From: an uncultured Ignavibacteriales bacterium
GTDB taxonomy: Bacteria; Zixibacteria; MSB-5A5; GN15; FEB-12
Direction of reading: 5' to 3'
DNA: 64,000 bases
Assembly (NCBI GenBank): GCA_964464605.1
Contig: CAYXJN010000003.1
Location: 186,001 to 250,000 of the forward strand
A program made the position numbers and the translations under genes. This document shows positions 4,302 to 30,394 of this stretch, piece after piece; positions within the stretch are counted from its first letter, which is position 1, and each line of letters opens with the position of its first letter. The notes below the pieces were generated by a model that ran no database searches, was not told the origin of the DNA, and was given only the letters and a program-made list of their open reading frames with translations.

Positions 4302-4321
4302 TTCAGACCTATATCGGATAT

Positions 4322-4362: not shown

Positions 4363-4374
4363 GAATCTTGCTTG

Positions 4375-5433: not shown

Positions 5434-5524
5434 TGATCCTCCATGTATCAATTCCAATTGAAAATTACTTTCATTAACAACACAGTTATTATACGAAAGC
5501 AGTGAAGAAAAAAAACAGGGAATT

Positions 5525-9037: not shown

Positions 9038-9109
9038 CGGGGTGCCTACGGCACATTCGTTAATTACGATTGGGAATATACGAATTCTAAACGGGAAAAA
9101 GAAATAAGA

Positions 9110-13511: not shown

Positions 13512-13539
13512 GTATCTCCTTTTGAACACCCGGAGGGTG

Positions 13540-13989
13540 CTATCTCATTTTAGATAATTCTGTTTCAAGACGATCGAAGTTCTCTTCGTTTTTCTCAATC
13601 ACAATATGTTTTACTTTTTCATATTCGGCAATTGATTCGAAACGCATGCGAAAGATGACCTTGGTTTTGTCGTCTTGCATGTCGAAAGTTACCGTCACCC
13701 GGAAAATATGCCCGGAAACATGGTCAAACACAAGCCGTTTCGGTTTGACTATCTCGACAAAAATACTTTTGTTCGGATAGTCGGTAGCGTCAGGACCGTG
13801 CATGACAAACTCCCACACGCCACCCGGTTTCAGGTCGAATATATGAAAGGTATTCTGAAACCCGTGCGGACCCCACCATTGCGACAAGTGCTTCGGGTCA
13901 GTCCAAGCTTGCCAGACGAGTTCTCGTGGATAATCGAAAACCCGTGTTGATACGATTTCACGATTATCAGTCGACGTAGTCTCTGCCAT
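13540..13989 (-). CDS. SRPBCC/AHSA1-like (START) domain protein
   Basis: RVFDYPRELVWQAWTDPKHLSQWWGPHGF and MHGPD..DYPN motifs. Confidence 0.9.
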   Translation of the reverse strand: MAETTSTDNREIVSTRVFDYPRELVWQAWTDPKHLSQWWGPHGFQNTFHIFDLKPGGVWEFVMHGPDATDYPNKSIFVEIVKPKRLVFDHVSGHIFRVTVTFDMQDDKTKVIFRMRFESIAEYEKVKHIVIEKNEENFDRLETELSKMR

Positions 13990-13990
13990 A

Positions 13991-14497
13991 CTATTTTACC
14001 TGATCAATATAGGCAGTAAGCTGCTCAAACGTACCGGTCCATCCCATGTTCATGCTGGTATGGTTATCGTCGAAAATCTTTTGTTCAGCCGCGGTTGCCG
14101 CATGAGCCGACCATTTCACGGTGACTTTTGTTTTGCCGTTTTGTTCTTCGAAGAGAACCGTACTCATCATTTCAAGCGGCCAACCCATGTTCATCTGGTG
14201 GCGGGTTGTACCACCCTGTTCATCTGAAAATGAACTGATAAAAACAAGCCGTTCCGGAGCGGTGATTTCTTTGAACAGAAATTTTCCCCACATTTTGTTG
14301 CCATCCGGACCCTCAATGCAATAATGAAACTTCCCGCCCGGCCTTAGATCCATCTTGCTCACGAGTACTTTAAATCCTTTTGGACCCCACCAATGCTTCA
14401 TGTGTTGCTCTTCAGTCCAGACTTTCCAAACCAAATCGCGTGGCGCATCAAGGACACGGCTGATAACAAACTCTGAACCACCTGTTTTCGTTTCCAC
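13991..14497 (-). CDS. SRPBCC/AHSA1-like (START) domain protein
   Basis: RVLDAPRDLVWKVWT..WWGPKGF, DLRPGG and GWTGTFEQL motifs. Confidence 0.9.
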   Translation of the reverse strand: METKTGGSEFVISRVLDAPRDLVWKVWTEEQHMKHWWGPKGFKVLVSKMDLRPGGKFHYCIEGPDGNKMWGKFLFKEITAPERLVFISSFSDEQGGTTRHQMNMGWPLEMMSTVLFEEQNGKTKVTVKWSAHAATAAEQKIFDDNHTSMNMGWTGTFEQLTAYIDQVK

Positions 14498-14514
14498 GAT
14501 ATGTTTCCTTTTCT

Positions 14515-15000
14515 CTACGTAGTCATCTTTGGTAAATATTCAGCAAGACGTCCGATCGTCTGTTTCGCGCCTTCGATTGCGCCGTATGTATCGTTCACTC
14601 TTTTGAGCTCTTCTGCAGAGTCAAATACCGAGCGCATGGTCAGTTTGGTTTTACCGTTTTCCTCTTCAAACGTTACGGTGACATGAAACCTGACCGGTTC
14701 GGTTTCTTCATCACCGGCATGTCGATATACCAGCCGCTCCGGTTTAACTACTTCGATATAGATAATCTTATTGATATAATCGCGACCATCCGGACCATGC
14801 ATGACAAAGCGCCAGGTCCCCTCCGGCCGTACATCCATGCTCTGCGTCGTTGTGGTAAACCCAATCGGTCCCCACCATTGCACAATATGTTTCGGATCAG
14901 TCCATGCTTTCCAGACCAGTTCACGAGGAGCATCGAATGAGCGGGTGACCAGAATTTCCCGGTCTGCCGTGCTTAGAATCGTGTTATGTGTATCATTCAT
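14515..15000 (-). CDS. SRPBCC/AHSA1-like (START) domain protein
   Basis: RSFDAPRELVWKAWTDP..WWGP.GF and GAIEGAKQT motifs. Confidence 0.9.
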   Translation of the reverse strand: MNDTHNTILSTADREILVTRSFDAPRELVWKAWTDPKHIVQWWGPIGFTTTTQSMDVRPEGTWRFVMHGPDGRDYINKIIYIEVVKPERLVYRHAGDEETEPVRFHVTVTFEEENGKTKLTMRSVFDSAEELKRVNDTYGAIEGAKQTIGRLAEYLPKMTT

Positions 15001-15023
15001 ATACGTTCACTTTCAAACTGTTT

Positions 15024-15440
15024 CTAAGCTTGTGATTTTCTCATGGAATCGACGCTCCACATTCCCGCACCGGCAGCGGAGAAATAAAGCCAGATAAAAC
15101 AGAACAATACGGCAGGCGTGCCATGATTGACCGTTGGCCAAAAGCTGGATGGAAAATGAAATTGGAAATACGCTACCGCCATCTCACCTGCCAAAATAAA
15201 CGCGACCGGTCGGGTGAAAAGACCGATCAGCATCAAGCCTCCGCCGACTAATTCGAGTAAACCGCCGATTCCGACTTGCGTCAACAACTCCGCCGTGCTG
15301 TTGTTCGGCGGCATCCCTACCGGGAAGGCGAAAAGTTTTGAAGTACCTGACAGTAAAAAAACGAATGCCGACACAATTCGCAGTATACTGTGAAAATACG
15401 GCGTCAACCCCGACCACTTTGCTCCTATGGATTTACTCAT
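15024..15440 (-). CDS. DoxX family membrane protein
   Basis: LRIV...KLF, ELVGG...GLFTRPVAFILAGEMAVAYF and GAG.WSVD. Start is 15440 (ATG) or 15452 (GTG). Confidence 0.88.
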   Translation of the reverse strand: MSKSIGAKWSGLTPYFHSILRIVSAFVFLLSGTSKLFAFPVGMPPNNSTAELLTQVGIGGLLELVGGGLMLIGLFTRPVAFILAGEMAVAYFQFHFPSSFWPTVNHGTPAVLFCFIWLYFSAAGAGMWSVDSMRKSQA

Positions 15441-15448
15441 GCGCTTCC

Positions 15449-15832
15449 TCACTTTCGTTTATTTCGAGACGGTGCATGTGCGCTTTTTTTACGGGCTCGC
15501 TGCTTTTCCTTCATCTGCAAAACTCGCAGGTAGCCATCCAGTCGGTCAAAGCTTTCTTCCCAAAAGCGACGATATTCTTCAATCCAGCCGAAAACATCCT
15601 TTAATGGAGCCGCTTTGAGCCGGCACGGTCGCCATTGTGCTTCTCGGCTCCGCTCAATCAATCCGGCTTTTTCCAGTACCTTAAGATGCTTAGATATTGC
15701 CGGAAGGGTCATGGCAAACGGCTGAGCCAGTTCATTGACCGAGGCTTCACCCCTGGTAAGACTTGCGAGAATAGCCCGCCGAGTCGGATCAGCGAGGGCG
15801 GCAAAGGTCATGGAAAGCCGGTCAGGTGTCAT
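15449..15832 (-). CDS. ArsR/SmtB family transcriptional repressor
   Basis: FAALADPTRRAIL, AISKHLKVLEKAGLI and AQWRPCRL motifs. Confidence 0.92.
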   Translation of the reverse strand: MTPDRLSMTFAALADPTRRAILASLTRGEASVNELAQPFAMTLPAISKHLKVLEKAGLIERSREAQWRPCRLKAAPLKDVFGWIEEYRRFWEESFDRLDGYLRVLQMKEKQRARKKSAHAPSRNKRK

Positions 15833-18164: not shown

Positions 18165-20609
18165 ATGGCCCGCTTCATCCGCACTTCTTTGCTCTTGATG
18201 GTGGTGAGTCTTGCTTTGACCGCCAGCCAGGCCTTAGCCGCTTACGGAACGATGAACTACCAGGGAAAACTTACCACCGCGGCTGACGTGGCAGTGCCGG
18301 ACGGCGCCTACCCGGCTCAATTTACGCTTTGGACCGATTCCCTCCTTGGTACACAGGTTTGGCTGGAGCAACAGGATATCAATGTTTCGAAGGGATTGTT
18401 TACAGCCGAACTAGGGAAAATCGTCAGTCTGGCCGATGTTTTCTCCCAGTACCCGAGTACCGACCTTTACTTGCAGGTTCAGGTTACAATAAGCGGATCA
18501 GCCCAAATACTACGTCCACGTATGCGGATTGCGACGGTACCCCATGCGCAGCTCAGCCGACGGTTGGTTGATGATACCATTACAACTACCGGGACTGCAA
18601 TCGTAGCAGGCGCCGCTCCTGACAGCGCAACGCGATTAGTTATGAGTACAGAAGATTTTGGAGATACGGATAGCCTGGTGCTTTCCACCGAACGAAAATC
18701 TGGATCGGTTATACTCACCGACAGAATGGGTCAGGAAGTGATGCGCACCGGGATGCACGTTGACGGTGAAGGGGATTCGATTCTCTTCGATCAATCAGTT
18801 TTGGATAATGGTTCTTTAGTATCCGGGTATAGTGCCAAAACCGGAAAAACCGGTTCGACCAAACGGCTCGTTTTCGTTTCCGGTAGTTCCGGATCGTCAT
18901 CACGCGAATATGCAAACGCTGATTCTGCCGGATCAGAGTCGCAAGCAAAAGAAGGAACGGTAACGGTCAAATATACGGCCAAAGCCGGCAAAACCGGATC
19001 AACAAAGCGCATGATATATCAGGATGGTGGCGATGAGGCGTCTTCGTCGGAAAGTGCAGACGCCGATTCAGTTGTATTTGAACAGTCGTATAAAACTGCT
19101 ACAACAGAGATAAAATACAAAGCGAAACAGGGAACAACCGGTTCCGCCAAACGGGAATCCGCGTCAAGCGGCGGCGATTCGTCCTCATCCGATGAATTTA
19201 CTGATCCGGATTCTCTTGTCAGTGCCGACACGATCAAACAAAACGGTGATGTTCTGGTAGTGTATAAAGCTACGACGGGCAAAACCGGCAAAGCAATATC
19301 ATCGTTGCGTGTTATTCCCGGTACCGGTTCTGAATCTGAAACGAACGAATTTGAATCAGCCGATTCCGCGGTATCCGAAGAAACCTATGATGTGAACGGA
19401 CAACAATTAGCGTTGTACAAAGCCAAACAAGGGAAAAGCGGAAGCGCGTCCGGTAAGCGGCTTATCGGCGGCGGCTCTTCTTCATCTTCCGATGATACAC
19501 ATACCCCTGATTCAATTGCGCATGCTGATTCAATCTCGAACGGTAGTGATTTATCTTCATCCGCATCAACACTTACAGGCGCCAAATTGGCTATAAAACT
19601 TAACTTTGGTCGTACGGGAAGCAGCTCTATTTCAACAAGACAGCAAACCGTTGACTCAACCGTCTCTTCAGATTCAGTTTCAAGCGGCGCACAATACTTG
19701 ACATACAAAGCAAAACAGGGGAAAACCGGAAGCGCCAAACAATCCAGAATTGTTGATGACAACGACGAATCTTCTTCTTCCGAGCGCATGACCGCCGATT
19801 CGATTATTACGGTTCATTCTGTTAATGACAATGCTGGTTCCTATGCGACATACACCGCAAAAACCGGCAAGACCGGAAAAACCAAAGATTGCAAGATCGT
19901 TGATAATGACGATGAATCCTCCTCATCCGAACGCATGGCAGTTGATTCGATTGTCCATGAAGAGAATTCCATTGTTAACGGCATTGTCGTAACCCAGTAC
20001 ACCGCGAAACAGGGCAGTACCGGCAGAACAAAGCGGACAATGCAAAACTCCGGCGGACATGAGTACGCATCTGTCGAAGAAGTCGACAACAACGGTTCTC
20101 GGTTGTATCTGACAACTGACAACGGCGGCGGTACACCGCTGGATACTGGATTCTATGCCGATGACAATGGTACCGTATATGCCGGCGCAAAGGTCGGTAT
20201 TGGCGTCAGTACGCCGACCCATCCGCTCCAGTTGAGTTCCGGAGCGCATTGCACGGCTGGCGGTACGTTTACCAACGCCTCAGATGTAAACTTGAAAGAA
20301 AATTTCCAGCCGGTCGATGAAGCTGCGTTACTTGATAAAGTCGAGCAGCTCCCCATTACTCAGTGGAACTATAAAAATGAAGGTGACAACGTCACCCACA
20401 TCGGCCCTACCGCTCAGGATTTCAAGGCGATCTTCGGCGTTGGTGACAACGACAAATCAATCTCTACCATCGATCCGGCCGGTATCGCTCTTGCCGCTAT
20501 CAAAGAACTGCGTAAAGAAAACCGGGATTTAAAGAGCGAAAACGCTGAACTGAAGAAGCGGCTGGATGATTTACAGAAAATGGTCGAAGCCTTAGCTGCC
20601 AAAAGATAG
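18165..20609 (+). CDS. Secreted repeat fibre protein with C-terminal peptidase S74 intramolecular chaperone
   Basis: Signal peptide; N-terminal MNYQGKLT...GLFTAELG domain; ~48-aa repeats; KVGIGVSTP; ASDVNLKEN autocleavage motif; WNYK, HIGPTAQDF and a C-terminal coiled coil. AGGAG RBS. Confidence 0.85.
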   Translation: MARFIRTSLLLMVVSLALTASQALAAYGTMNYQGKLTTAADVAVPDGAYPAQFTLWTDSLLGTQVWLEQQDINVSKGLFTAELGKIVSLADVFSQYPSTDLYLQVQVTISGSAQILRPRMRIATVPHAQLSRRLVDDTITTTGTAIVAGAAPDSATRLVMSTEDFGDTDSLVLSTERKSGSVILTDRMGQEVMRTGMHVDGEGDSILFDQSVLDNGSLVSGYSAKTGKTGSTKRLVFVSGSSGSSSREYANADSAGSESQAKEGTVTVKYTAKAGKTGSTKRMIYQDGGDEASSSESADADSVVFEQSYKTATTEIKYKAKQGTTGSAKRESASSGGDSSSSDEFTDPDSLVSADTIKQNGDVLVVYKATTGKTGKAISSLRVIPGTGSESETNEFESADSAVSEETYDVNGQQLALYKAKQGKSGSASGKRLIGGGSSSSSDDTHTPDSIAHADSISNGSDLSSSASTLTGAKLAIKLNFGRTGSSSISTRQQTVDSTVSSDSVSSGAQYLTYKAKQGKTGSAKQSRIVDDNDESSSSERMTADSIITVHSVNDNAGSYATYTAKTGKTGKTKDCKIVDNDDESSSSERMAVDSIVHEENSIVNGIVVTQYTAKQGSTGRTKRTMQNSGGHEYASVEEVDNNGSRLYLTTDNGGGTPLDTGFYADDNGTVYAGAKVGIGVSTPTHPLQLSSGAHCTAGGTFTNASDVNLKENFQPVDEAALLDKVEQLPITQWNYKNEGDNVTHIGPTAQDFKAIFGVGDNDKSISTIDPAGIALAAIKELRKENRDLKSENAELKKRLDDLQKMVEALAAKR
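18828..20045 (+). repeat. Tandem 48-51-aa protein repeats, eight clear and one degenerate
   Basis: Y[KTS]A[KT]xG[KTS][TS]G cores start at 18828, 18972, 19116, 19263, 19416, 19704, 19851 and 19998. Steps are 144-153 nt, with one 288-nt double step. Confidence 0.85.
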
Positions 20610-20625
20610 CCATACGTTTCACGGT

Positions 20626-20659
20626 AAAAAAAGAGCGAGTGCAAACTCGCTCTTTTTTT
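20626..20659. terminator. Bidirectional terminator
   Basis: A7-GAGCGAGT-GCAA-ACTCGCTC-T7. Confidence 0.9.
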
Positions 20660-20669
20660 GCGCACACTT

Positions 20670-22541
20670 TTATGAGCCGAGATGATCCTGTATCACGCTG
20701 GGAGGCAAGGCAGCGCGCAACGCATTAAAGACGGCGGCGACATCGATGATTTCCTGCGCGATAGCGCCACCGACCGGATTCAAAAAGCCAAAAGCCGCGA
20801 AAAGCATGCCGATCACGCTTAACGACATCCCGCCTACTGCGCTTTGCAATGCAATAGTCCGCATCCGGCGACTGATATGCATGCACTCATCCACTTTAGC
20901 AAGCGAATTGTCCATAACGACTGCTCCGGCTGCTTCGGAAGTCACTTCACTTTTTCCGCCGATAGCAATGCCGACCGTAGCCGCCATCATCGCAGGAGCG
21001 TCATTGATCCCGTCTCCTACATAGAGCGTATTCGCTTTTTCCGTTTCAGCCCGAACGATACTTAGTTTTTCTTCCGGCGTCTTTTGTGCGTAGATTTCAT
21101 TGATACCGACTTGATCAGCCAGATAACGCACTTCCGATTCCCGGTCACCGGAAACAATTATGACACGCTGGAACTCATGTTTCGGTTTAAGATGCTGAAT
21201 GAACGACTTACTCTCACCCCGGGCGGCATCACGAAAGCGCAAGGTAGCTGCATAGGTATCGTTGATAAGCATAATGCACTCCAACCCGCTGCTGTGTTCG
21301 GGAAGCTGCGCGATATTGACTATCTGCCTCCCCTTCAATTTTCCTCTGCCGGTAATTTCGATAGTTTGTTCTTTAACTTTTCCGCGAAGTCCGTGACCGG
21401 GCGGTTCATTGACTTCGCTTGCATCCATGAGTTCAATTTGCTGTTCTTCCGCTTTTGTGAGTACTGCTTGTGCCAGAGGATGTTTTGAATACCGCTCCAG
21501 CGTTGCGGCAAAAGCTAAAACTTCCGACTGCTGAAATCCGGTTGCGGTAACAATCTCAGTGAGTTTTGGTTCACCGGTTGTCAGGGTTCCGGTTTTATCG
21601 AAGATCGCTGTTCGGCATTTGGAAATACGCTCAAGTACAATAGGGCTTTTAATGATAATCGCGCGCCGTGCACACAAGGAAATCGATCCGATAATGGCCA
21701 CCGGAATAGCAATCAATAACGGGCACGGAGTTGCAACAACCAGTACAGCCAAAAACCGGGTTGCTTCGCCGCTTACACTCCACGCAATCAATGCTAACGC
21801 AACCGCCAGCGGCGTGTACCATGCGCCTAATTGGTCCCCCAGCCGACGGAGCCGCGGTCGCATCTGTTCCGACTCATGCATGACCGCCATTATTTTTGCG
21901 TAGCGTGAATCGGCCGCTTTTTCCGTTGCTGTAATGACCAAAACTGAATCTCCGTTGATCGCCCCGGAAATTACCGTTGTACCCGCCGTTTTGGTCAATT
22001 TGAACGGTTCACCGGTGAGGTATGATTCATCCATCACACCATGCCCTTCGATCACGATGCCATCCACGGGACAGGTTTCATGCGGATACACAATGATCGT
22101 GTCACCGACCATGATATCAGTAACGGCAACATCGGCAATGCCGGATCCGATTCGGCGGTGCGCCGTTGACGGCATACGTTTGGCCAGTGCGCGCAGCACC
22201 GATGACGCGCTGTGCAGGGCATACCGCTCCAGCGCTTCCCCGCCGGAAAGCATTAACACCACAATCGACCCGGCCAAATACTCGCCAAGAATAACCGACG
22301 TAACAATCGATATCCCCGCCAGCAAATCGGAGCCAAATTGTCGTCTTACGAGTTTGATCGCTAACTCGCCGACAAGCGGAATACCGCCAAACACGAGAAC
22401 GATATACAACGGGATGTTGGAAGTATCAGTCGCGTAATAAAACGCGTAACGCAGCAAAAGCGATATGGCAATACCAAGCAGAGAAACAACGGCTATAATG
22501 CCGTCTCTCTGTCGGTGAATCTGGCTAATCAGCGTTTTCAT
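20670..22541 (-). CDS. Heavy-metal translocating P1B-type ATPase (P1B-5-like)
   Basis: LTGEP, VVATPCPL, DKTGTLT, SKHP, GDGINDAP and QEIID motifs. No N-terminal HMA domain. Confidence 0.92.
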   Translation of the reverse strand: MKTLISQIHRQRDGIIAVVSLLGIAISLLLRYAFYYATDTSNIPLYIVLVFGGIPLVGELAIKLVRRQFGSDLLAGISIVTSVILGEYLAGSIVVLMLSGGEALERYALHSASSVLRALAKRMPSTAHRRIGSGIADVAVTDIMVGDTIIVYPHETCPVDGIVIEGHGVMDESYLTGEPFKLTKTAGTTVISGAINGDSVLVITATEKAADSRYAKIMAVMHESEQMRPRLRRLGDQLGAWYTPLAVALALIAWSVSGEATRFLAVLVVATPCPLLIAIPVAIIGSISLCARRAIIIKSPIVLERISKCRTAIFDKTGTLTTGEPKLTEIVTATGFQQSEVLAFAATLERYSKHPLAQAVLTKAEEQQIELMDASEVNEPPGHGLRGKVKEQTIEITGRGKLKGRQIVNIAQLPEHSSGLECIMLINDTYAATLRFRDAARGESKSFIQHLKPKHEFQRVIIVSGDRESEVRYLADQVGINEIYAQKTPEEKLSIVRAETEKANTLYVGDGINDAPAMMAATVGIAIGGKSEVTSEAAGAVVMDNSLAKVDECMHISRRMRTIALQSAVGGMSLSVIGMLFAAFGFLNPVGGAIAQEIIDVAAVFNALRAALPPSVIQDHLGS

Positions 22542-22614
22542 ATTGTCGGTACCTGAAACAGGTAACGCAAAATGGAAAACGAGTCAACGTAATTTTCTGC
22601 AGGAATGGGGCGGG

Positions 22615-23718
22615 TTAATTTTTTCGGAATGTTTTCGTTAAAACCGAGCTGACCGCCAGTAATGCGGCGCGTGTTTGGTCAGTCGCGCAATTAGCAACGA
22701 CGAGGGTAGCAAGGTTTCTCTCTTTTTGTACCACCATTACGGCATAACAGATGTTCGATACATTCCCGAAATGAAACGAGGTGTGCGTACTGTCGCTATT
22801 GACCTGATTGTACCAGCCGAGGGAATAGTTTGGTAATCCATAATGCATCAACTCGAAACTCTGTTGGTCGAGCGTTTTGATTTTACCCTGTAACCCTCTC
22901 AATTGAACCTGCAGGTAATTGGCGAAATCCGGAACGGTGAGATTAACATTCCCACCTGCCGCCAAGAATACCGGCAGCATATGCGCGCCGTATTGCACGT
23001 CATCTGCGGACAACGGTTTCAAACTTTCGGGGGTGTGACACCAGGGCTGCAAACTGTCTTTTATGTTCGGGAACGAAAACCCGGCGGAAATACCGAAATT
23101 TTCATAGAGCGTTGTTTCGACCAACACCTCCCACGGCTTACCACTCACTTTTTCGAGCATGAGCGCGGCCAATGTGTATCCAGCATTGGAATATTGAAAC
23201 GAATCAGCTACCGGTTCCAAAGTCAGAACAAATTGGGCAAACGGAACTGTTGCTGTCGGATCAAAAAGACCGATTTCTCTCGGTATCTTTGCTAATTCAT
23301 CCCCCGACTCAAACGGCTGTATCCGTGCGCGATGCGACAAGAGCTGTTGCAGGGTGATATCCGCATACTCCGGTCGGCTGGTTTCTTTGAGTTTTGGGTA
23401 TAGGTCAAAAAACTTCGTGTCCCAACTTATCTGTTTTTTCTGAACTAACATTGCGGCCATGAGGGCGGTGACTGATTTGGTGCATGAGCCGATCATAAAC
23501 CGGTCGTTCATGGTGGCACGATGTTTGTCGGAACCCCATCGCTGCACCCCGACCACTCCGGCGCGGAACATGGAGTCGGCACTGACGATCGCATACCCAA
23601 TTTCGGGGATGTTATTGGCGATCCGTATGGAATCAACCCTGCTGTGCAGGTCATCAGCGGAGACGGAAGCGGAAATCAATAAGGCTGTTATAAAAAGCAG
23701 AATGCGAAACCGTTTCAT
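22615..23718 (-). CDS. Secreted serine hydrolase, beta-lactamase/class C-like family
   Basis: Signal peptide; FxIGSCTK (SxxK), LLSHR, YSNAGY and HFG motifs. Confidence 0.88.
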   Translation of the reverse strand: MKRFRILLFITALLISASVSADDLHSRVDSIRIANNIPEIGYAIVSADSMFRAGVVGVQRWGSDKHRATMNDRFMIGSCTKSVTALMAAMLVQKKQISWDTKFFDLYPKLKETSRPEYADITLQQLLSHRARIQPFESGDELAKIPREIGLFDPTATVPFAQFVLTLEPVADSFQYSNAGYTLAALMLEKVSGKPWEVLVETTLYENFGISAGFSFPNIKDSLQPWCHTPESLKPLSADDVQYGAHMLPVFLAAGGNVNLTVPDFANYLQVQLRGLQGKIKTLDQQSFELMHYGLPNYSLGWYNQVNSDSTHTSFHFGNVSNICYAVMVVQKERNLATLVVANCATDQTRAALLAVSSVLTKTFRKN

Positions 23719-23985
23719 GCAAGAAAGGTATGCTTATTTTTTGTAAAAACAAGCCTGGCAATAAAGACACAAAATGTTGGTTGGAGAAACTTGAAAGAGA
23801 TGAAAAGCGAAACAAGACTTACCTGTTAACTTATTCGGGCGGCATGTTCCAGGCGAGATTGGACATGCATCGTACAACTGCAGGGCGAGAGACTTTCCAG
23901 ACAAATGTACAGACGAGATAACCTGGAATAAGCCCCACAATAATCCACGCTACTGATAACATGACTGGTTCCTTTCAGGGTAGTT

Positions 23986-24016
23986 AAAGAGGAGGCCCGG
24001 ATGTGCTCCGGACCTC
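23986..24016 (-). terminator. Probable terminator after the RRM gene
   Basis: Minus-strand stem GAGGUCCGGA/UCCGGGCCUC followed by CTCTTT. Confidence 0.55.
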
Positions 24017-24034
24017 AACGTAGATTTCAGAATA

Positions 24035-24331
24035 CTAATTATTCTTGGTCTCAACGGTCGGTGCCGACGTCGGCGCCGGTGAAGCATCGGATTTACCTTT
24101 TGCTTCATTAACATTAAGTGTACGTCCGCCCAGGTCTTTGCCGTGCATACCGGCTATCGCCGCTTCTGCTTGCGCCTGAGTAGGCATTTCGACAAATCCA
24201 AATCCCTTTGGCTTGCCGTCAGCTTTGTCCATGATAATGTTGACCCGGGTAACTTCGCCGAATTTTTCAAACGAAGTACGCAGTTCCGGTTCCGTTGTCG
24301 CGTGCGCGAGGTTTCCTACGTAAATATTCAT
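24035..24331 (-). CDS. RNA-binding protein (RRM/RNP-1)
   Basis: RNP2 IYVGNL, RNP1 KGFGFVEM and GRTLNVNEA. AAGGAG RBS. Confidence 0.95.
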   Translation of the reverse strand: MNIYVGNLAHATTEPELRTSFEKFGEVTRVNIIMDKADGKPKGFGFVEMPTQAQAEAAIAGMHGKDLGGRTLNVNEAKGKSDASPAPTSAPTVETKNN

Positions 24332-24647
24332 ACCAGTCTCCTTTCGTCTATTGACACCGCCCGCGCTTCCTTTGCAGCATGAACGATCTCAATAACGTGG
24401 TTCTTGGCGCAAGATAGCGCCATGGTCACCAGATTAACGATTTGACAAGGATTGGTGTGCTAATTACAAGACTTGCGAAACAATCAATAACGTGACAGTT
24501 ATTCTTACTCTATATACATACAGTATCGGCAAATGACTACATATATCTCGTTAAAACCAATAATAAGACTGAATAAAGCATGCAATAGAGAGGTAAGTGG
24601 GGTGTGGGTGGGTGGTTAAGAGGAAAGTGTATACAAAAAAGTAATTC

Positions 24648-24675
24648 TTGACAGCTGACCTATGTAGGTTAGTTT
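24648..24675 (+). promoter_or_regulatory. Putative sigma70 promoter for the nucleotidyltransferase locus
   Basis: TTGACA-N16-TAGTTT. Confidence 0.5.
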
Positions 24676-24734
24676 TTAGCTCATGGGCAAGTTTCTTCTA
24701 CGAATAACCTGGGGCAACTTCATAAATCTTAGAG

Positions 24735-26129
24735 ATGTTCATGATTGAAAAAGATGAAATACGATTAAAAGCAAAGGAGTTTGAAACTCATGAAGCCAAC
24801 GTCGAACGTGATTATGTGTATGGTTGGGTTTTAGCAGGAATTTATAGTATTAGTGATCTACAATTTCAGTTCATTCTTAAAGGAGGTAATTGTTTAAGAA
24901 AAGGATATTTTGAAAATACACGCTTTTCAAATGACTTAGATTTTTCAATTTCGTCTTCTATAGACCAAAGCAAATTAATTATAGCTTTAAACCAAGTATG
25001 CGATTGGATACAGGAACAAAGCGGCATAGAATTTCTCAAAGATCGTAACATTATAAAAGCTAAGTCAGTTGCCTTTTCTCATAAAACAATTTACGAAGCT
25101 AAATTATATTTTAAGGACTTTTACGGCAACCCCAATTCAATTACTATTAGCATTCGACTCGACATTACCGAATTGGAGAAAATTTATCTCCCCATTCAAG
25201 AACGATTCATTATTCACCCATATTCTGACGCAAACCAGCTTCACATCCCAATCAAGTGTATGAAACTTGAAGAAATTTTAGCAAACAAATTGATTTGCAT
25301 GCTTCAAAGACGTCAAACTCAAGATTTATATGATTTTGTTTTTTCATTTGTTATGAATAATTCGATAGAGATTAATCGCTCGGAAATTGTTACGACTTTC
25401 TTAAAAAAGACAATTTTCGAACCAAGTCCGGGGGTAGTACGAAACCTGCTAGTTGAATTACCGATTGAAGTATTGAACTCAGTATGGAATAAGTATATAG
25501 CTTGTCCTATAGCAGGGGTTATCACTTTCAGTGATGCAGTATTGCAATTTCGAACAGTTGCAGAAGCACTCTTTGGTGGTCTTCCTGCAGGAAGATCGCA
25601 GCTCTCATATTTTCCTTCTGCATTGAGAACACCAATTATGGATGCAGGGCGGGACATGAAATTACTTTCGCTAACTTATGATGGGGTGACCAGAAAAGTT
25701 GAACCTTATTCTCTCGTTTTTAAACGAAGACAAGACGGAGAGGCACATGAATATTTCTACGGATATGACCAGACGGGAGGACGCAATAGCGGCCCGGATA
25801 TAAAATCCTTTTTTCACTACAAAATTCAAAATCTAGTGATTTTAGATGAAAAATTTGAACCGAGATACGAAATTGAGTTATCTAAGGCTGGAGAGCTTGG
25901 AGATAAAACATATTTTAGTCGTCCGTTTTCAAGAAAAGGTAATCCAACTTCTTCATTTCGACTAAGAGCGTCAAGGCAGCGCAATCGCTATAGCTCTGGC
26001 ACTATCTATAGAATCAAATGCATAGTATGCGGGAAAACTTTTACGAGAAGTACATATTCAACAAGAATCAATAAACATAAAGATCAATACGGCAACTACT
26101 GTTTGGGGCGAACTGGCTATTTGACTTGA
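24735..26129 (+). CDS. AbiEii/MenT-type nucleotidyltransferase fused to a WYL domain and a C-terminal Zn-finger
   Basis: N-terminus has ERDY, LKGGNCLRK, RFSNDLDFS and EEILANK..QDLYD. WYL-like LSLTYDGVTRKVEPYSL...YFYGYD...KSFFHYKIQNL at ~25630-25860. C-x2-C-x15-H-x7-C at 26019-26102. Markedly AT-rich. Start is 24735 or 24741. Confidence 0.85.
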   Translation: MFMIEKDEIRLKAKEFETHEANVERDYVYGWVLAGIYSISDLQFQFILKGGNCLRKGYFENTRFSNDLDFSISSSIDQSKLIIALNQVCDWIQEQSGIEFLKDRNIIKAKSVAFSHKTIYEAKLYFKDFYGNPNSITISIRLDITELEKIYLPIQERFIIHPYSDANQLHIPIKCMKLEEILANKLICMLQRRQTQDLYDFVFSFVMNNSIEINRSEIVTTFLKKTIFEPSPGVVRNLLVELPIEVLNSVWNKYIACPIAGVITFSDAVLQFRTVAEALFGGLPAGRSQLSYFPSALRTPIMDAGRDMKLLSLTYDGVTRKVEPYSLVFKRRQDGEAHEYFYGYDQTGGRNSGPDIKSFFHYKIQNLVILDEKFEPRYEIELSKAGELGDKTYFSRPFSRKGNPTSSFRLRASRQRNRYSSGTIYRIKCIVCGKTFTRSTYSTRINKHKDQYGNYCLGRTGYLT

Positions 26130-26248
26130 TAGATCAAACATATCAAGAAAACTTCATCTCCCCTCTTCCCCACCCCCTCATCTTTTTTGTATCTTAGGTG
26201 TATATACAGTACGAAACGAGTGTATGAAGCGAGTATGAAAGACTATCT

Positions 26249-27565
26249 ATGAAAAAGCGAGTGCTCATGTACTCCGCCGCCCTTATCGTGGCGTTGGCAG
26301 GGGTATATTTTCTGTTTTTCGGGCGGGGAAACTCAGCAGCAGTTCAGTATGAATTCGCCACTATCAGCCGGGGGGATATCCAAAGCACCATTTCTGCCAC
26401 CGGTACCCTGGCGCCTGTTGCCTCGGTTGAAGTAGGTACGCAGGTTTCGGGCACTGTTGATACGGTCTATGTTGATTTTAATGACAAAGTAAAAGAGAAC
26501 CAGCTTATCGCCATACTCGACACCTCGCTTTTGAAGGCAACCGTTCAGGATGCCGAGGCTGCCATGGAGCGGGCCGAAGCCCAGCTTGAAGGAGCACAGG
26601 CCGATTATGATCGCAACAAAGCGCTGTTGGAACGGAACCTGATATCGAAAGAAACCTTTCAGCCGTTTGAAATAAACCTGAAAAGCCAGCGGGCTGCGTT
26701 GCAGTCGGCGGATGCCGCGGTCGAACGAGCGCGAAGAAACCTCGAATACGCAGTAATACGTTCCCCTATATCCGGTATTGTCATTTCCCGCAGTGTTGAA
26801 CCGGGACAAACGGTCGCGGCCAGTCTGTCTGCGCCGGTGCTGTTTATCATTGCCAAAGATTTATCGAAAATGGAAATCCTTGCCGCAGTGGATGAAAGCG
26901 ATATCGGACAAATCAGTGTCGGGCAAGCGGTGAGTTTTGAAGTCGCCGCGCATAGCGGAAAAGAATTCAAGGGGACAGTCCAGCAGGTTCGCCTGCAGCC
27001 GACCACGGTTTCCAATGTCGTGACCTACACAGTCGTCGTCGAAGCGGAAAATGAAAACGATCTCTTGTTACCCGGCATGACCGCAACGCTCGATTTCATT
27101 ATCGATCAGCGTACTGATGTCCTTACGGTCCCGAACAAAGCACTCCGGTTTAAACCGAGTGATGATGAAGTCGCGGCTGCCCGCGCCCGGATGCCGCAGC
27201 GTCCGCAGGGTGAACGTGCGGAACGTGAAAACGGTGAACGCGCCGAACGTCCGCGTGAAGGTGGCGACAGCGCTCGCGGCGGCGGTATGCGAATGGGTGG
27301 ACCGCCCAGTGATTCCGCCCGTGCCCGGTGGAGAAACAATGCGAATATGGTTTGGTATTTGGATTCACTCGGCCAACTTGCTTTTGCCCCGTTCCAACCG
27401 GGACTGAGTGACGGCACCAACACTGAAATCGCCATGAGTCGCACATTAAAAGAAGGCATGCAGATAATCGCCGGTATCAAAGATAACAGCGTAGCGACTA
27501 CCAATAGAAGCGCTTCCCCATTGAGCGGACAACAACCGGGCGGCGGAATGCGTCGCGGATTCTAA
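26249..27565 (+). CDS. MacA-like efflux periplasmic adaptor subunit
   Basis: N-terminal TM, VEVGTQVSG, IRSPISG.V..R.VEPGQTVAAS, VDESDIG and LLPGMTA. Confidence 0.9.
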   Translation: MKKRVLMYSAALIVALAGVYFLFFGRGNSAAVQYEFATISRGDIQSTISATGTLAPVASVEVGTQVSGTVDTVYVDFNDKVKENQLIAILDTSLLKATVQDAEAAMERAEAQLEGAQADYDRNKALLERNLISKETFQPFEINLKSQRAALQSADAAVERARRNLEYAVIRSPISGIVISRSVEPGQTVAASLSAPVLFIIAKDLSKMEILAAVDESDIGQISVGQAVSFEVAAHSGKEFKGTVQQVRLQPTTVSNVVTYTVVVEAENENDLLLPGMTATLDFIIDQRTDVLTVPNKALRFKPSDDEVAAARARMPQRPQGERAERENGERAERPREGGDSARGGGMRMGGPPSDSARARWRNNANMVWYLDSLGQLAFAPFQPGLSDGTNTEIAMSRTLKEGMQIIAGIKDNSVATTNRSASPLSGQQPGGGMRRGF

Positions 27566-27584
27566 CAGGCGTCGCCTGTTTATT

Positions 27585-28333
<749 letters not shown>

Positions 28334-28337
<4 letters not shown>

Positions 28338-29551
28338 ATTTTCTTCGTCTTATCCGCGCCGCGTTCAAAAGTATTTTTCGTAATCGACTACGGAGTATTT
28401 TGACTTCGCTCGGGATTATCATCGGTGTCAGCGCCGTTATTATCATGGTTGGTATCGGCGAAGGATCGCAGGCGGTAATCGAACAAAACATCAATTCTCT
28501 CGGTACTAATTTATTGATCGTCTTCCCCGGCAGCTCCAACACGGCCGGTGTTCGCGGTGGCGCAGGAAGCAATAACCGGTTTACTTTCGATGATGTCGAA
28601 AAAATCAAAAAGGAATCGGTATTACTTGATGGCGTCTCTCCTGTCGTGCGAGCCGGCGGGCAAGTTGTCGGCGGTACGGGTAACTGGTCGACAACTATTT
28701 ACGGTGTCACCCCCGATTATTTCAAAATCCGCAGTTGGCAGATACAGTATGGGGATTTCTTTACGGACAAGGATATCGCCGGAAGCCGCAAAGTTGTATT
28801 GCTCGGCAAAACGGTAGCAGATCAATTATTCCCCGGCCAAGACCCTACCGGACAAACCATCCGCGTTCGCAACACACCGGTTACCGTGATCGGCGTTTTG
28901 AAAGCCAAAGGGCAAAGCGGAATGGGACAGGATCAGGACGATGTTATTTTAGCCCCTTCCACCACCGTGCTGTATCGTCTTAAAGGTGGGCAATGGATCG
29001 ACATGATAAACGCCAGCGGTGTTTCTGCTGCGCGTTTACCGGAAGCAATCGAAGAACTCAAACTGATTTTACGTAGTGCACACAAATTACAGCCGGGTGA
29101 AGATGATGATTTCACCATTCGCAGTCAGGCGGAACTGAGTGAAGCGATGACGGCAACTTCGGAAACGTTAACGTTATTACTCGCATCGATTGCCGCGGTC
29201 AGCTTGGTAGTCGGTGGTATCGGTATTATGAACATCATGCTCGTATCGGTCACTGAGCGCACCCGCGAAATCGGTATCCGTCTTTCGGTCGGCGCGCGTG
29301 AGAGTGATATTCTGGTTCAGTTTCTTACCGAAGCAGTGGTATTAAGTGTCAGCGGTGGCGTTATCGGTATTACTCTTTCGGCAATAGTAGTGGCAGGATT
29401 GAATAAATGGTCGGACTTACAGCCGATTATTACCCCTGAGATAGTTGTTATTTCATTTCTGTTCTCGGCGGTTGTCGGTGTTTTTTTCGGTTTTTATCCG
29501 GCCTGGAAAGCCGCCGCGCTCGACCCGATCGATGCTTTACGCCATGAATAA
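28334..29551 (+). CDS. ABC transporter permease (MacB/FtsX-like)
   Basis: RSILTSLGIIIGV, GGIGIMNIMLVSVTERTREIG and PIDALRHE motifs. Confidence 0.95.
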
Positions 29552-29566
29552 CGCAAGGATAGCACT

Positions 29567-30394
29567 ATGAAAATGTCTCACTCACTGTTTTTACTTTTCT
29601 GCATAGCAATTGCTTCTTCTGCTTTTGCCGGTGATTTGAAATGTTCGTGGACAACACAAGCTGTGCGGGTCGACGGAAAATCGGATGAATGGTCAGGTGC
29701 CGCCAGTGCATTTTTTGAAGATCAAAGCGCTGTCGTTATGGCCAGCAGCGACAGCGCCTTTCTGTACATTTTGTTTCGCACCAACGATATCAAATCAGTT
29801 CGCGCCATTAAGGGAACCGGAATCACGCTCTTTTTGGATGCAAAAGCAGGCAAGAAAAAAGATTTTTCATTGAAATTCCGCGGCGGACCATCGATGGAAC
29901 AACTGAAACCCAGGCAGAATGAAATACAAACGATGGATCGTCAAGCATCCTCCGGTATGAAAACACAGCAGTTTCCTGATTCAATGCACCTGCCGACCGT
30001 TCTTCTTTGCAATATCGACAAATGGCTTATCGACAAAGAACTATCATTGGACGGTGCTCATGGCCCTATGGCGGCGTTTGACACTTCACAGGGATTTTAC
30101 ACTTATGAATTTCGCGTACCGTTAGCTGAAGCAACGGCACAGTATTATGGCATCAACGCAAAGCCGGGACAGAAAATTGCTATTGGCGCGGTTTGGGGTG
30201 GTATGGCAAAGGATGAATCGATGAAACCGGAAATGGAAGCAGGCTTCGGCGATTTCGGCGGCGGCAGCGGTGGTATTGAGGGAGGGAGTATGCGGGACCG
30301 CGCGAGAAAGAATCGACCATATCAGAGTGAGATGACAAAAGGGAAAAAACAGGAAATTTGGGTCAAAGCTATCTTAGCGAATCAGACGAAGTAA
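29567..30394 (+). CDS. Secreted hypothetical protein (weakly DOMON/CBM9-like)
   Basis: Signal peptide; VDGKSDEW and YEFRVPL; Gly-rich C-terminal segment. Co-oriented with the ABC operon. Confidence 0.6.
   Translation: MKMSHSLFLLFCIAIASSAFAGDLKCSWTTQAVRVDGKSDEWSGAASAFFEDQSAVVMASSDSAFLYILFRTNDIKSVRAIKGTGITLFLDAKAGKKKDFSLKFRGGPSMEQLKPRQNEIQTMDRQASSGMKTQQFPDSMHLPTVLLCNIDKWLIDKELSLDGAHGPMAAFDTSQGFYTYEFRVPLAEATAQYYGINAKPGQKIAIGAVWGGMAKDESMKPEMEAGFGDFGGGSGGIEGGSMRDRARKNRPYQSEMTKGKKQEIWVKAILANQTK

Follow-up and report, generated by a model that had tools for sequence, protein, structure and literature searches.

An AbiEii-type nucleotidyltransferase fused to a WYL domain and a zinc finger without an AbiEi partner: a possible self-regulating one-gene stress or phage-defence switch

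The window, which is the whole stretch of 64,000 nucleotides analysed here, contains a gene that joins an AbiEii/MenT-type (DUF1814) nucleotidyltransferase, a WYL domain and a zinc finger in one polypeptide. The clade to which this gene belongs has lost the antitoxin AbiEi, which is retained in a sister clade of identical domain make-up. We consider it about an even chance (probability roughly 0.5) that the protein is a self-contained, horizontally mobile sensor-effector or toxin from the AbiE/MenAT family that is gated by ssDNA or RNA. The gene may act as a self-regulating switch in stress or phage defence.

The gene and its surroundings

The gene and its flanks comprise the following features.

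24035..24331, minus strand: RRM-type RNA-binding protein, upstream neighbour
24480..26215, no strand: low-GC islet with the AbiEii-WYL-zinc-finger gene as its sole gene
24502..24518 and 26199..26215, no strand: marginal 17-nt inverted repeat bounding the islet
24735..26129, plus strand: AbiEii-WYL-zinc-finger coding sequence
26249..27565, plus strand: HlyD/MacA-type membrane-fusion protein, downstream neighbour

The open reading frame (ORF) has no internal stops and encodes 464 aa from its first ATG. A database protein with 100% identity to this ORF comprises 462 aa, and the homologues in the family alignment begin at the residue aligned to M3. For these reasons the true start is probably at 24741, giving a protein of 462 aa.

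The initial annotation, made from the sequence alone, had described an AT-rich ORF between an RRM gene and a MacAB-like operon, and all parts of this description were recovered. The GC content of the ORF was 35.9%, with a GC3 of 29.2%, against 48.5% GC in the remaining window and a GC3 of 54.9% in the neighbouring HlyD gene. The islet around it had a GC content of 36.1%. The upstream neighbour matched Pfam RRM_1 (E=6.7e-23) and the downstream neighbour matched HlyD_D23 (E=2.3e-21). The HlyD gene opens an ABC efflux operon, in which the ORFs of an ABC ATPase and a permease come next on the plus strand. These RRM and HlyD genes are context outside the AbiEii-WYL-finger system; the window copy is flanked by genes of housekeeping type, with no defence island there.

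The inverted repeat at the edges of the islet is 88% complementary. Its alignment score of 24 is weak in comparison with shuffled sequences (maximum 23, mean 17.2, sd 2.2), and because it lies just above them we do not claim the repeat as the end of a mobile element. The HlyD orthologues of relatives had no RRM gene within their 1.5 kb upstream flank, so that the boundaries of an insertion are not definable by synteny.

The 403-nt spacer upstream of the gene wholly contains only ORFs of at most 33 aa and gave no match in an Rfam search. No tRNA genes were found in a scan of positions 20000-30000, and scans of the flanks for promoters and terminators gave nothing above expectation. In one small RNA run, reads within the stretch covered only 24306-24440, where the RRM gene begins, together with its upstream DNA. 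No transcript of the AbiEii-WYL-finger gene was seen in this run, which is evidence neither for nor against its expression.

Domain composition of the protein

The coding sequence is divided as follows.

24741..25547, plus strand: AbiEii/MenT-type (DUF1814) nucleotidyltransferase domain, residues 3-271
24879..24896, plus strand: motif I KGGNCL, residues 49-54
24921..24944, plus strand: RFSNDLDF with the catalytic DxD motif, residues 63-70
25287..25334, plus strand: motif IV, K185-LICMLQRRQTQ-D197-LY-D200
25617..25889, plus strand: WYL domain with Sm-like beta-barrel, residues ~295-385
25920..25994, plus strand: disordered Arg/Ser/Lys-rich linker, residues 396-420
26004..26126, plus strand: C2HC zinc finger module, residues 424-464

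The nucleotidyltransferase domain was recognised by sequence profiles and by fold. The PADLOC AbiEii profile PDLC02304 matched residues 3-271 (E=6.7e-50) and Pfam AbiEii (PF08843) matched residues 32-222 (E=1e-22; 81.7 bits with a cut-off of 22.5). An NCBIfam search gave no match. The full-length predicted model had a pLDDT of 85, and its Foldseek matches included MenT4 (6y56, 1.9e-9), JHP933 (4o8s, 2.4e-7), TglT/MenT3 (6j7q, 2.7e-7) and 8an4 (5e-3). Pol-beta-type motifs reportedly consist, following work by Dy and colleagues from 2014, of GG or GS, DxD, a third acidic residue and K...R...D..D. This set is complete in the window protein (GG, DxD, D143 and K...R...D..D), and the AbiEii motifs quoted in the initial annotation are all present.

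The catalytic residues are strongly conserved. Among 35 homologues with 50-59% identity, G50, G51, S65, D67, D69, D143, K185, R192, D197 and D200 were invariant, as were K49 and N52 in motif I and L198 and Y199 in motif IV; R193 was nearly so. This invariance indicates purifying selection on an active nucleotidyltransferase. It had been suggested that the unusual QTQDLYD ending of motif IV reflects attenuated activity, but residues 194-196 are variable in the family (consensus QRRHSFDLYD), two homologues (P0005 and P0060) share QRRQTQDLYD with the window copy, and K185, R192, D197 and D200 around them are invariant, with R193 nearly so; the suggestion finds no support here. According to Arrowsmith et al. 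(2026), T65 of AbiEii, S65 of SanaT and T71 of RlegT are phospho-acceptors. Judged from its position only, S65 of the window protein would be the counterpart of the phospho-acceptor in AbiEii, SanaT and MenT.

These data bear on the explanation that the gene is a functionless remnant, decayed or domesticated, of an AbiE pair. Such a remnant would agree with the gene's being an orphan toxin in an AT-rich islet, with no transcript detected, and with a few split or truncated copies among the homologues (L034, L039, L055 and L175). Against this, the frame is intact, full-length identity amounts to 42-59% across phyla, and the catalytic, WYL-motif and metal-ligand positions show no variation or almost none. 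Moreover, the gene is kept intact in a strain that is ~2% diverged and comes from a different study. We regard decay as very improbable.

WYL domains are best known from transcription factors, which they drive as sensors of ssDNA. A WYL-like module had been proposed at residues ~300-375, and this part of the proposal stood. The motifs LTYDGVTRKVEPYSL (residues 313-327), EYFYGYD (339-345) and DIKSFFHYKI (355-364) are present. By sequence the assignment is weak: PADLOC WYL matched the window copy at E=2.2e-4, and Pfam WYL (PF13280) remained below its cut-off (13.5 bits versus 21.8; E=0.073). Across the family, Pfam WYL matched 24 of the 57 members at E<=1, with a best value of 3e-6. When the PDB was searched by sequence, using the C-terminal profile or the WYL segment, WYL proteins were not among the matches, which were weak C2H2 fingers and a single chance hit.

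By fold, as judged from the predicted model, the assignment is clear. An AF2 model of residues 280-464 (pLDDT 81.7) was compared with known structures by VIA-align, and all top 10 matches were WYL proteins (Z 7.1-10.1). The first nine, from DriD, PafBC, BrxR and CapW, had Z scores of 8.3-10.1 and covered model residues ~9-100; they were followed by 6oaw (Z 7.1) and then by Hfq/Sm proteins with Z <=6.0. The best Foldseek match of the same model was the ssDNA-bound WYL domain of DriD (E=1.1e-4, probability 1.00, 22-24% identity). Binding of ssDNA has been published for the WYL domains of DriD, CapW and PafBC, which sense ssDNA by this domain (PMC9186387, PMC11662680, PMC11804915). The ssDNA-contact residues given for DriD are Y168, R176, R178, Y192, K202 and R204 (PMC9186387). 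In the window's family, Y315, R320, Y325, Y340, K357 and F359 are invariant and lie at WYL motif positions, a correspondence at the level of motifs.

The Arg/Ser-rich linker and the pattern C-x2-C-x15-H-x7-C noticed earlier were likewise found. The Arg/Ser-rich stretch spans residues 396-423, of which residues 396-420 had a pLDDT <50 in the full model; its length and sequence vary across homologues, and its basic character is kept. The finger module had a pLDDT of 85-92. Its putative ligands are C429, C432, H448 and C456 (C429-x2-C432-x15-H448-x7-C456). C429 was invariant and the other three nearly so in the 35 homologues, and the three Cys were all invariant in a set of 57 sequences. All matches to Pfam zinc-finger profiles (zf-BED, zf_Tbcl_Rhp7, zf-C2H2) were below their cut-offs, and a PDB profile search reached E ~0.02 to eukaryotic C2H2 fingers. 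DSSP assigned short strands and no helix to the finger model.

AbiEi in the two clades and control of the enzyme

AbiE and MenAT are two-gene toxin-antitoxin systems of type IV, now proposed as type VII. The initial annotation had noted that no AbiEi-sized ORF lies on either side of the gene, and this absence extends to the whole clade. None of 77 upstream neighbours, 76 downstream neighbours and 106 second neighbours of >=100 aa was identified as AbiEi; among the upstream neighbours, one sub-threshold AbiEi_4 match lay on the opposite strand. The gene's own genome (100% complete) gave one AbiEii match and none to AbiEi_4, AbiEi_1, AbiEi_2 or AbiEi_3, with positive controls that worked for AbiEi_4 and AbiEi_2 and no such controls for AbiEi_1 and AbiEi_3.

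In contrast, the sister clade, whose toxins consist of these three domains as well, has an overlapping upstream AbiEi of ~270 aa in 58 of the 71 loci scanned, for example on plasmid pCB3090_2 of Rhizobium sp. CB3090 (WP_283060973/WP_283060974). Its toxin is alignable end to end with the window protein (29% identity, E=6e-51), keeps the same finger pattern and matches both Pfam AbiEii and Pfam WYL above cut-off (WYL 27.5 bits). In the tree, the two clades fall on separate branches (98* for the sister clade, 97* for the window's clade). The sister clade is a bona fide AbiEi-paired version, and on this tree the loss of AbiEi is a later event specific to the window's clade. The question raised earlier, whether homologues are mostly paired with AbiEi, has a different answer in each clade: no for the window's clade and yes for its sister. 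Motif IV differs as well, since the sister clade has the canonical R-P-R-D-L-Y-D, which the window's clade lacks.

It had been proposed that the WYL domain and the finger replace the antitoxin. As an account of their origin this fails, because the fusion coexists with AbiEi in the sister clade; the two domains were not originally an antitoxin substitute, and the antitoxin was lost later. According to the sister clade, they do not by themselves make the antitoxin dispensable. The other half of the proposal, control of the enzyme in cis, is possible, as we infer below.

The upstream neighbours were also considered as candidates for an antitoxin of another kind, in a two-component system whose partner escapes recognition. 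The partner could be a small upstream peptide or RNA, one of the varied upstream ORFs with translational coupling, or an unlinked factor of the host, such as a Ser/Thr kinase or phosphatase acting on S65. An upstream ORF on the same strand overlaps by 4-8 nt or abuts the gene in many homologues (e.g. L003, L008, L009, L015, L028, L061, L072 and L073), and Pfam recognises nothing in ~45 of the 77 upstream ORFs. Furthermore, the Ser at the phospho-acceptor position is invariant, and published work reports that phosphorylation of AbiEii was reversed in vitro by a host phosphatase. However, the upstream ORFs are mutually unrelated by blastp and phmmer, and the most frequent neighbour family recurs in at most 9 of 79 loci. 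Those that can be named belong to other systems (a TIR effector, NOV_C, Vut_1, a racemase and peptidases), and the window's own spacer offers neither a contained ORF above 33 aa nor an Rfam match. A gene that moves alone between phyla, moreover, cannot rely on a specific antitoxin of its host. We consider such a hidden partner improbable.

Another explanation is that the enzyme is targeted to its substrate rather than switched. The WYL domain and the finger would then bind the substrate and guide the nucleotidyltransferase to single-stranded 3' ends that are free to be tailed or capped, for example those of ssDNA from phages or plasmids, of replication intermediates or of damaged RNA. An antitoxin would be needless, since healthy cells would be without substrate. 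The same domain architecture data fit this explanation, and the clade-wide loss of AbiEi is most simply explained if the enzyme is not toxic to its host. The WYL domain of DriD contacts ssDNA without base specificity (PMC9186387). Neighbours of two loci process RNA or DNA ends, namely a PNKP ligase (L020) and a 3'-5' exonuclease (L036), but these are single cases in 76-79 loci. Moreover, all characterised DUF1814 enzymes target tRNA acceptor ends according to the introduction of Arrowsmith et al. (2026), and the sister clade with the same domains still needs AbiEi, an argument for intrinsic toxicity of the three-domain enzyme. We hold this explanation to be unlikely, though the strongest of the alternatives. 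If foreign ssDNA or RNA were tailed, it would be a new activity for the AbiEii/DUF1814 family.

In our preferred reading, the N-terminal nucleotidyltransferase would be the effector and would add nucleotides to tRNA 3' ends, thus halting translation, on the model of MenT1/3/4 and S. agalactiae AbiEii. The WYL domain would provide the input by binding ssDNA and, less well, ssRNA, as DriD, CapW and PafBC suggest, and its ligand would arise in phage replication or DNA damage. A second contact with nucleic acid, be it the ligand or the substrate, may come from the basic linker and the C2HC finger. Because AbiEi was lost in the window's clade, the enzyme would have to be kept off by default within the polypeptide, and the ligand would turn it on. 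In this reading we infer that the protein is toxic, that tRNA is its target and ssDNA its ligand, that ligand binding switches it on allosterically, and that it takes part in phage defence. The AbiEii fold guarantees no defence phenotype, since S. agalactiae AbiE expressed in E. coli gave no protection against 32 coliphages (Arrowsmith et al. 2026).

A more specific version, which we consider doubtful, holds that the WYL-linker-finger part took over the job of AbiEi, so that the protein would derive from a type VII toxin-antitoxin system that has become a single polypeptide. Without ligand, this part would hold the enzyme in a conformation that auto-phosphorylates S65, or would occlude the active site; the enzyme would be freed once the WYL domain and the finger have bound ssDNA or RNA. 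The sister clade would represent a preserved intermediate in which fusion and antitoxin occur together. If true, this would provide a natural series from a two-gene toxin-antitoxin system to an immune effector that is encoded by one gene, gated by a ligand and able to pass between phyla by itself.

The AbiEi-paired and orphan clades form a natural experiment on a toxin losing its antitoxin, and they bear on the origin of single-gene effectors of abortive infection or stress. Should the orphan protein prove to be gated by a ligand, it would offer a compact, reconstitutable system for WYL allostery on an enzymatic output, and also a model for control of DUF1814 toxins by auto-phosphorylation.

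Relation to known systems and spread of the family

The window protein shares the DUF1814 fold and all four catalytic motifs with AbiE of Lactococcus lactis and Streptococcus agalactiae and with the MenAT systems (MenT1/3/4, TglT-TakA), and it also has the Ser at the phospho-acceptor position, two residues before DxD. It differs from them in having no AbiEi/MenA gene adjacent or elsewhere in the genome, in its ~190 extra C-terminal residues, which make up the WYL domain and the zinc finger, and in lacking an Arg directly before D197.

The initial annotation knew of no characterised system with this architecture. Our literature search likewise found no paper that characterises the protein, but the architecture itself had already been listed. 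The main text of Makarova et al. (2014) mentions WYL fused to an 'AbiGII-like nucleotidyltransferase (DUF1814)' (PMC4012209). Supplementary File 6 of the same paper (Makarova, Anantharaman, Grishin, Koonin and Aravind 2014) contains the class 'AbiGII-like-nucleotidyltransferase+WYL+C2H2', with the same domain string as here, e.g. 'DUF1814+WYL+zf-C2H2' in a protein of 486 aa from Afipia sp. 1NLS2 (PMC4012209). This class is a catalogue entry of five proteins, and the entry makes no mention of an antitoxin, clades or a mechanism (PMC4012209).

The closest structural match of the beta-barrel is found in the wHTH-WYL-WCX factors DriD, CapW, BrxR and PafBC. Unlike in these factors, the output of the window protein would be an enzyme rather than transcription, and neither of the accompanying domains was detected. 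No HTH family matched for an N-terminal winged HTH, the N-terminus being the nucleotidyltransferase, and WCX is absent from the model, where the WYL barrel is followed only by a short segment, the disordered linker and the finger. Fusions of WYL with enzymes listed in 2014 include Cas3-WYL, an exoRNase, an Mrr-like REase, HNH and an SF-I helicase (PMC4012209). These fusions, and the Cas13d accessory protein WYL1 (6oaw), resemble the window protein in that a WYL sensor is joined to, or works with, a nucleic-acid-targeting enzyme. In contrast to these other fusions, the effector here is a toxin-type nucleotidyltransferase with antitoxin-controlled relatives, and the WYL domain would be wired directly to an enzyme that, by analogy, blocks translation.

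Annotation pipelines label such genes only as 'AbiEii/AbiGii toxin family', and PADLOC-type rules that require AbiEi would miss the genes of the orphan clade.

Full-length members of this large family are scattered over bacterial phyla and some archaea. The gene is carried by roughly 200 genomes, with ~211 genome loci for the window's clade and 571 loci for the sister clade, and there are also representatives of ~385-400 aa that lack the finger. Members of the window's clade were found in at least 10 bacterial phyla and in three archaeal MAGs, with a taxonomy that is scrambled on the tree; relatives on genome contigs were found by an alignment-based scan, whereas a single-sequence scan gave none. 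Among 40 genomes related to that of the window, none had an orthologue. The gene is horizontally transferred, and its distribution is patchy.

Co-location with defence islands, which the initial annotation had proposed to score, was frequent by eye. One copy sits between HsdM and HsdR (L075), another directly follows a SMODS + 4TM CBASS pair (L016), and some adjoin Shedu, TIR, PD-T7-4 or OLD/Gabija-like genes. PADLOC was positive for 27 of the 146 direct neighbours of homologues, which is barely above the 7 of 51 control ORFs, a crude control that consists of the ORFs of a single genome window, our own, which itself has some PADLOC-positive genes. Enrichment in defence islands is thus not demonstrated. 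A search of the INPHARED phage collection gave no match. Some copies are on conjugative plasmids, and one copy lies beside a Toprim/VapE primase on an IMG/VR contig.

The gene and its predicted domains

The gene under study lies in an islet of low GC content (36.1%, versus 48.5% in the rest of the window), and its GC3 is 29.2%, versus 54.9% in the next gene. The locus comprises the following features:

24735-26129, plus strand: uninterrupted open reading frame (ORF) of 464 aa, the gene under study
24741, plus strand: probable true translation start
24480-26215: low-GC islet, made up of the gene plus roughly 250 nt of the spacer on its 5' side
24502-24518 and 26199-26215: 17-nt inverted repeat, 88% complementary
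Upstream neighbour, opposite strand: RRM_1 protein
Downstream neighbours: HlyD-type membrane-fusion gene, then ABC ATPase and permease ORFs

The probable start was assigned because the identical database copy of the protein has 462 aa, and every homologue begins at the residue aligned to M3. The flanking genes are ordinary cellular genes. All motifs quoted in the initial annotation were located in the translation at their reported positions. ORFs lying wholly inside the 403-nt upstream spacer were all ≤33 aa, an Rfam scan of this spacer matched no family, and a tRNA gene search of window 20000-30000 returned none. The inverted repeat brackets the islet almost exactly. Its score of 24 barely exceeds the maximum of 23 in shuffled controls, and the repeat may represent the edge of an insertion or a chance match.

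The gene is the sole AbiEii match in its own genome, which is 100% complete and comprises 2.8 Mb in 18 contigs. Near-identical DNA was found in 20 runs from 8 studies among the matches listed, and a strain diverged by about 2% retained the whole stretch on one contig, with 70 differences and one gap in 3801 nt. In this strain (run X14), 12 listed substitutions cluster within 62 nt of the upstream spacer (24550-24611) and four fall inside the 1395-nt ORF; 42 further differences are unlisted, so that no rate is derivable from these counts.

The nucleotidyltransferase spans residues 3-271 (PADLOC AbiEii, E=6.7e-50; Pfam AbiEii, E=1e-22). A full-length AlphaFold2 model built from 35 homologues (pLDDT 85, pTM 0.76) gave MenT4 (6y56, 1.9e-9), JHP933 (4o8s, 2.4e-7) and TglT/MenT3 (6j7q, 2.7e-7) as top Foldseek matches. 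By sequence, WYL was weak in the window copy (Pfam E=0.073, under the cut-off; PADLOC E=2.2e-4), and Pfam WYL matched 24 of the 57 family C-terminal regions at E≤1 (best 3e-6). The predicted fold of residues 280-464 has pLDDT 81.7. In a structural search of this model against all representatives, nine WYL proteins (DriD, PafBC, BrxR, CapW) scored Z 8.3-10.1 and WYL1 (6oaw) Z 7.1, versus Z ≤6.0 for generic SH3, Hfq and Sm barrels. Foldseek ranked the ssDNA-bound C-domain of DriD first (E=1.1e-4, 22-24% identity). Because WYL proteins lead the structural search and Foldseek agrees, the model upholds the initial assignment of the region around residues 300-375 as a WYL domain.

The linker (residues 396-420) is predicted to be disordered (pLDDT <50), and is rich in Arg, Ser and Lys in every homologue while its sequence varies. 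The C-terminal 40 residues contain the finger C429-x2-C432-x15-H448-x7-C456. C429 was invariant and C432, H448 and C456 were ≥90% conserved in 35 sequences; all three cysteines were invariant in 57 sequences. Matches of the C-terminus to C2H2, BED and treble-clef finger models were all sub-threshold, and we classify the module as a putative C2HC finger by its ligand pattern only.

Relatives with and without an AbiEi partner

At E≤1e-3, a word-indexed search yielded 1529 relatives from 6741 candidates. Own copy aside, the 120 best are 449-520 aa long and share 51-59% identity over 96-100% of the window protein. An exhaustive search of 50%-identity cluster representatives returned 2254 relatives at E≤1e-3, of which 139 reached E≤1e-30; finger-less forms of about 385-400 aa that match residues 3-381 of the window protein are among them. 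In a scan of one genome per species, 211 of the 241 pattern matches encoded a relative. The best 80 of these 211 loci belong to Acidobacteriota, Chloroflexota, Planctomycetota, Verrucomicrobiota, Bacillota, Actinomycetota, Bacteroidota, Pseudomonadota, Bdellovibrionota, many Patescibacteria and three archaeal MAGs. No orthologue was found in 40 genomes of the same family or order; two of them encode a classical AbiEii of about 280 aa at 26% identity, and in two others the matches were partial and weak (E=1.5e-4 and 5e-4).

Neighbours were obtained by greedy ORF calls at these best 80 loci and scanned for the antitoxin AbiEi. It was found in none of the 77 upstream neighbours at the AbiEi cut-off, none of the 76 downstream neighbours, and none of the 106 second neighbours (ORFs ≥100 aa; near-duplicate loci L047, L078 and L079 left out). 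A lone sub-threshold AbiEi_4 match (locus L021; E=5.7e-4, 20.4 bits) lies on the opposite strand, with HTH_17 as the better fit. AbiEi was also absent from the finger-less genome loci L015, L045, L048, L050 and L067. The window's own genome had no match to AbiEi_4 or AbiEi_2, for which positive controls were detected, or to AbiEi_1 or AbiEi_3, scanned without positive control. Since AbiEi is missing among the neighbours of all scanned loci, the orphan state characterises the clade as a whole. The missing partner described for the window is thus borne out for its close homologues, and the idea that they nearly always carry AbiEi fails. An all-against-all comparison (blastp and phmmer) of three ORFs per side placed the commonest neighbour family, generic Xre-type HTH proteins in varying positions, in at most 9 of 79 loci. 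That an antitoxin is present but unrecognised seems to us quite improbable.

A plasmid search revealed a Rhizobium protein of 474 aa that can be aligned with the window protein over the full length (29% identity, E=6e-51). It shares the finger, matches Pfam AbiEii at 7e-37 and exceeds the Pfam WYL cut-off (27.5 bits). Its gene is preceded by an AbiEi gene, with an 8-nt overlap. Distant representatives from the exhaustive search share this architecture and have the canonical motif IV R-P-R-D-L-Y-D; an alignment of 12 of them recovered at least 571 relatives among the 597 metagenome pattern matches listed. We kept 80 of these sister-clade loci; an upstream ORF could be called in 75, and 71 were scanned after removal of four duplicates. 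AbiEi_4 and/or AbiEi_1 matched the upstream ORF at E≤0.01 in 58 of the 71 loci, 56 of them exceeding the curated cut-off. The typical partner is a same-strand ORF of about 270 aa, either overlapping the toxin gene by 4-8 nt or abutting it. Among the 13 other loci, four have an ORF that is truncated by the end of a contig or lies close to one (L103, L111, L112, L121), L175 has a toxin fragment upstream, L167 has a same-strand ORF of about 279 aa without a Pfam match, and the remaining seven have a short or opposite-strand upstream ORF.

Split or truncated copies occur at genome loci L034, L039 and L055 and at metagenome locus L175; in L039, and likewise in L175, a 140-aa N-terminal AbiEii fragment forms a separate ORF. 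Occasional decay thus occurs in both clades.

A tree of 74 rows, built with FastTree, took as outgroup two classical AbiEii proteins encoded by relatives of the window's genome; the gene of one has AbiEi_4 upstream, that of the other a 274-aa ORF without a Pfam match. The AbiEi-paired clade forms one branch (support 98) and the window's clade another (97), the latter within a superclade (99) that includes finger-less representatives. The most economical order of events is that WYL fused to an AbiEi-paired toxin, the clades split, and AbiEi was lost on the stem of the window's clade. Given the quick tree method and an outgroup of two rows, we consider this order likely rather than proven. About a dozen sister-clade loci encode forms of about 400-425 aa, apparently without a zinc finger (L103, L108, L115, L120, L123, L129, L142, L154, L161, L169, L180). 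Finger-less and finger-bearing forms interleave on the tree, and hence the finger seems to have been gained or lost repeatedly in the sister clade.

A candidate single-gene system

The domain combination itself is not new. A 2014 catalogue (PMC4012209) states in its main text that WYL domains combine with an AbiGII-like nucleotidyltransferase (DUF1814), and its Supplementary File 6 lists a class 'AbiGII-like-nucleotidyltransferase+WYL+C2H2' with 5 proteins. Outside subscription journals, that paper alone mentioned DUF1814 together with WYL in full text, and none of the titles and abstracts listed described a characterised member of the WYL-AbiEii fusion. The initial view of an architecture without a characterised example therefore stands for this literature, but the domain string had been catalogued. 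The apparent novelty lies in the division into two clades, one paired with AbiEi and the other widespread and lacking the antitoxin; this second clade is therefore a candidate single-gene system.

Arrowsmith et al. (2026, bioRxiv) describe MenT toxins as enzymes that extend the 3'-CCA end of tRNAs by nucleotides, and S. agalactiae AbiEii as using UTP or CTP to modify tRNA. Binding of AbiEi induces auto-phosphorylation of AbiEii at T65 (equivalent to SanaT S65 and RlegT T71), which abolishes activity, and AbiE was therefore proposed as a type VII system. The WYL domain of DriD binds ssDNA via Tyr, Arg and Lys without base specificity, and ssRNA more weakly (PMC9186387); CapW and PafBC sense ssDNA as well (PMC11662680, PMC11804915). 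By analogy, the nucleotidyltransferase would be the effector, gated by a WYL sensor that the basic linker and finger may assist. As an antitoxin is absent, the off-state would be intramolecular. Auto-phosphorylation of S65, induced in cis, is an attractive candidate route, because this invariant residue, two positions before the DxD motif, occupies the phospho-acceptor position of the characterised toxins. A tailing enzyme targeted to a substrate, leaving the host unharmed, is a rather doubtful alternative to such a gated toxin.

In 35 homologues, the catalytic residues G50, G51, D67, D69, D143, K185, R192, D197 and D200 are invariant, as are S65 and the WYL-motif residues Y315, R320, E323, Y325, Y340, D345, K357 and F359. 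This conservation argues against a functionless remnant, which we consider unlikely. The initial concern that QTQDLYD might indicate attenuated activity was unfounded: positions 194-196 of motif IV differ between family members (consensus HSF), and QRRQTQDLYD is found in two others.

Genomic neighbourhoods

Homologues in the window's clade have varied neighbours, many of them from defence, toxin-antitoxin or mobile-element families:

Neighbours of homologues in the window's clade
L075: gammaproteobacterial MAG; homologue (4904-6304) inserted between HsdM/S and HsdR of a type I restriction-modification operon (2616-4889 and 6277-9228); YgjP-like metallopeptidase downstream, serine recombinase upstream
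L016: Crocinitomicaceae MAG; homologue (6001-7347) 5 nt after a SMODS cyclase and 4TM CBASS effector (4208-5077 and 5105-5992), as if appended to the CBASS operon
L004, L029: Shedu SduA
L073: CAP12/Pycsar-type TIR
L068: PD-T7-4
L072: PDC-S36
L020: OLD/Gabija-like ATPase
L032, L035: DarT1-associated NADAR antitoxin
Other families: PemK, HigB and HipA-like toxins; Mrr; AbiU2
Mobile elements: serine and tyrosine recombinases; TraG; relaxase genes

A defence, toxin-antitoxin or mobile-type gene lies within two ORFs at about 44 of 76 loci, in a subjective tally by family names. Of 146 direct neighbours, 27 matched a PADLOC model at E≤1e-8, and these came from 24 of the 76 loci (own-gene fragment left out); for the ORFs of the window, used as control, the count was 7 of 51. 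This count is less persuasive than the tally by eye; as the control comes from one window, with PADLOC-positive genes of its own, and raw counts were compared, we claim no enrichment.

Relatives also occur on conjugative and other large plasmids, with 3 clade-like records among 29 plasmid matches. The search of INPHARED phage genomes did not find the gene, and IMG/VR contained a single relative (L099), flanked by a DUF7146-Toprim-VapE primase and a ParB-N6/N4 methyltransferase (165-2300 and 7758-9161), a context typical of satellites or prophage-like elements.

Several other ORFs of the window deserve mention:

1557-1937, minus strand: 127 aa, PADLOC PD-T4-2_B (E=3.5e-41), covering the C-terminal part of the model
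11326-12138, plus strand: 271 aa, PADLOC candidate defence family PDC-S31 (E=3.4e-51)
15452-15832, minus strand: 127 aa, PADLOC Csa3 models (E=8.3e-19), in a run of small same-strand ORFs (13137-15832)
18165-20609, plus strand: 814 aa, secreted-looking in translation, with many Y-[KT]-A-K-x-G-K-T-G-S-x-K repeats and a coiled-coil-like C-terminal tail
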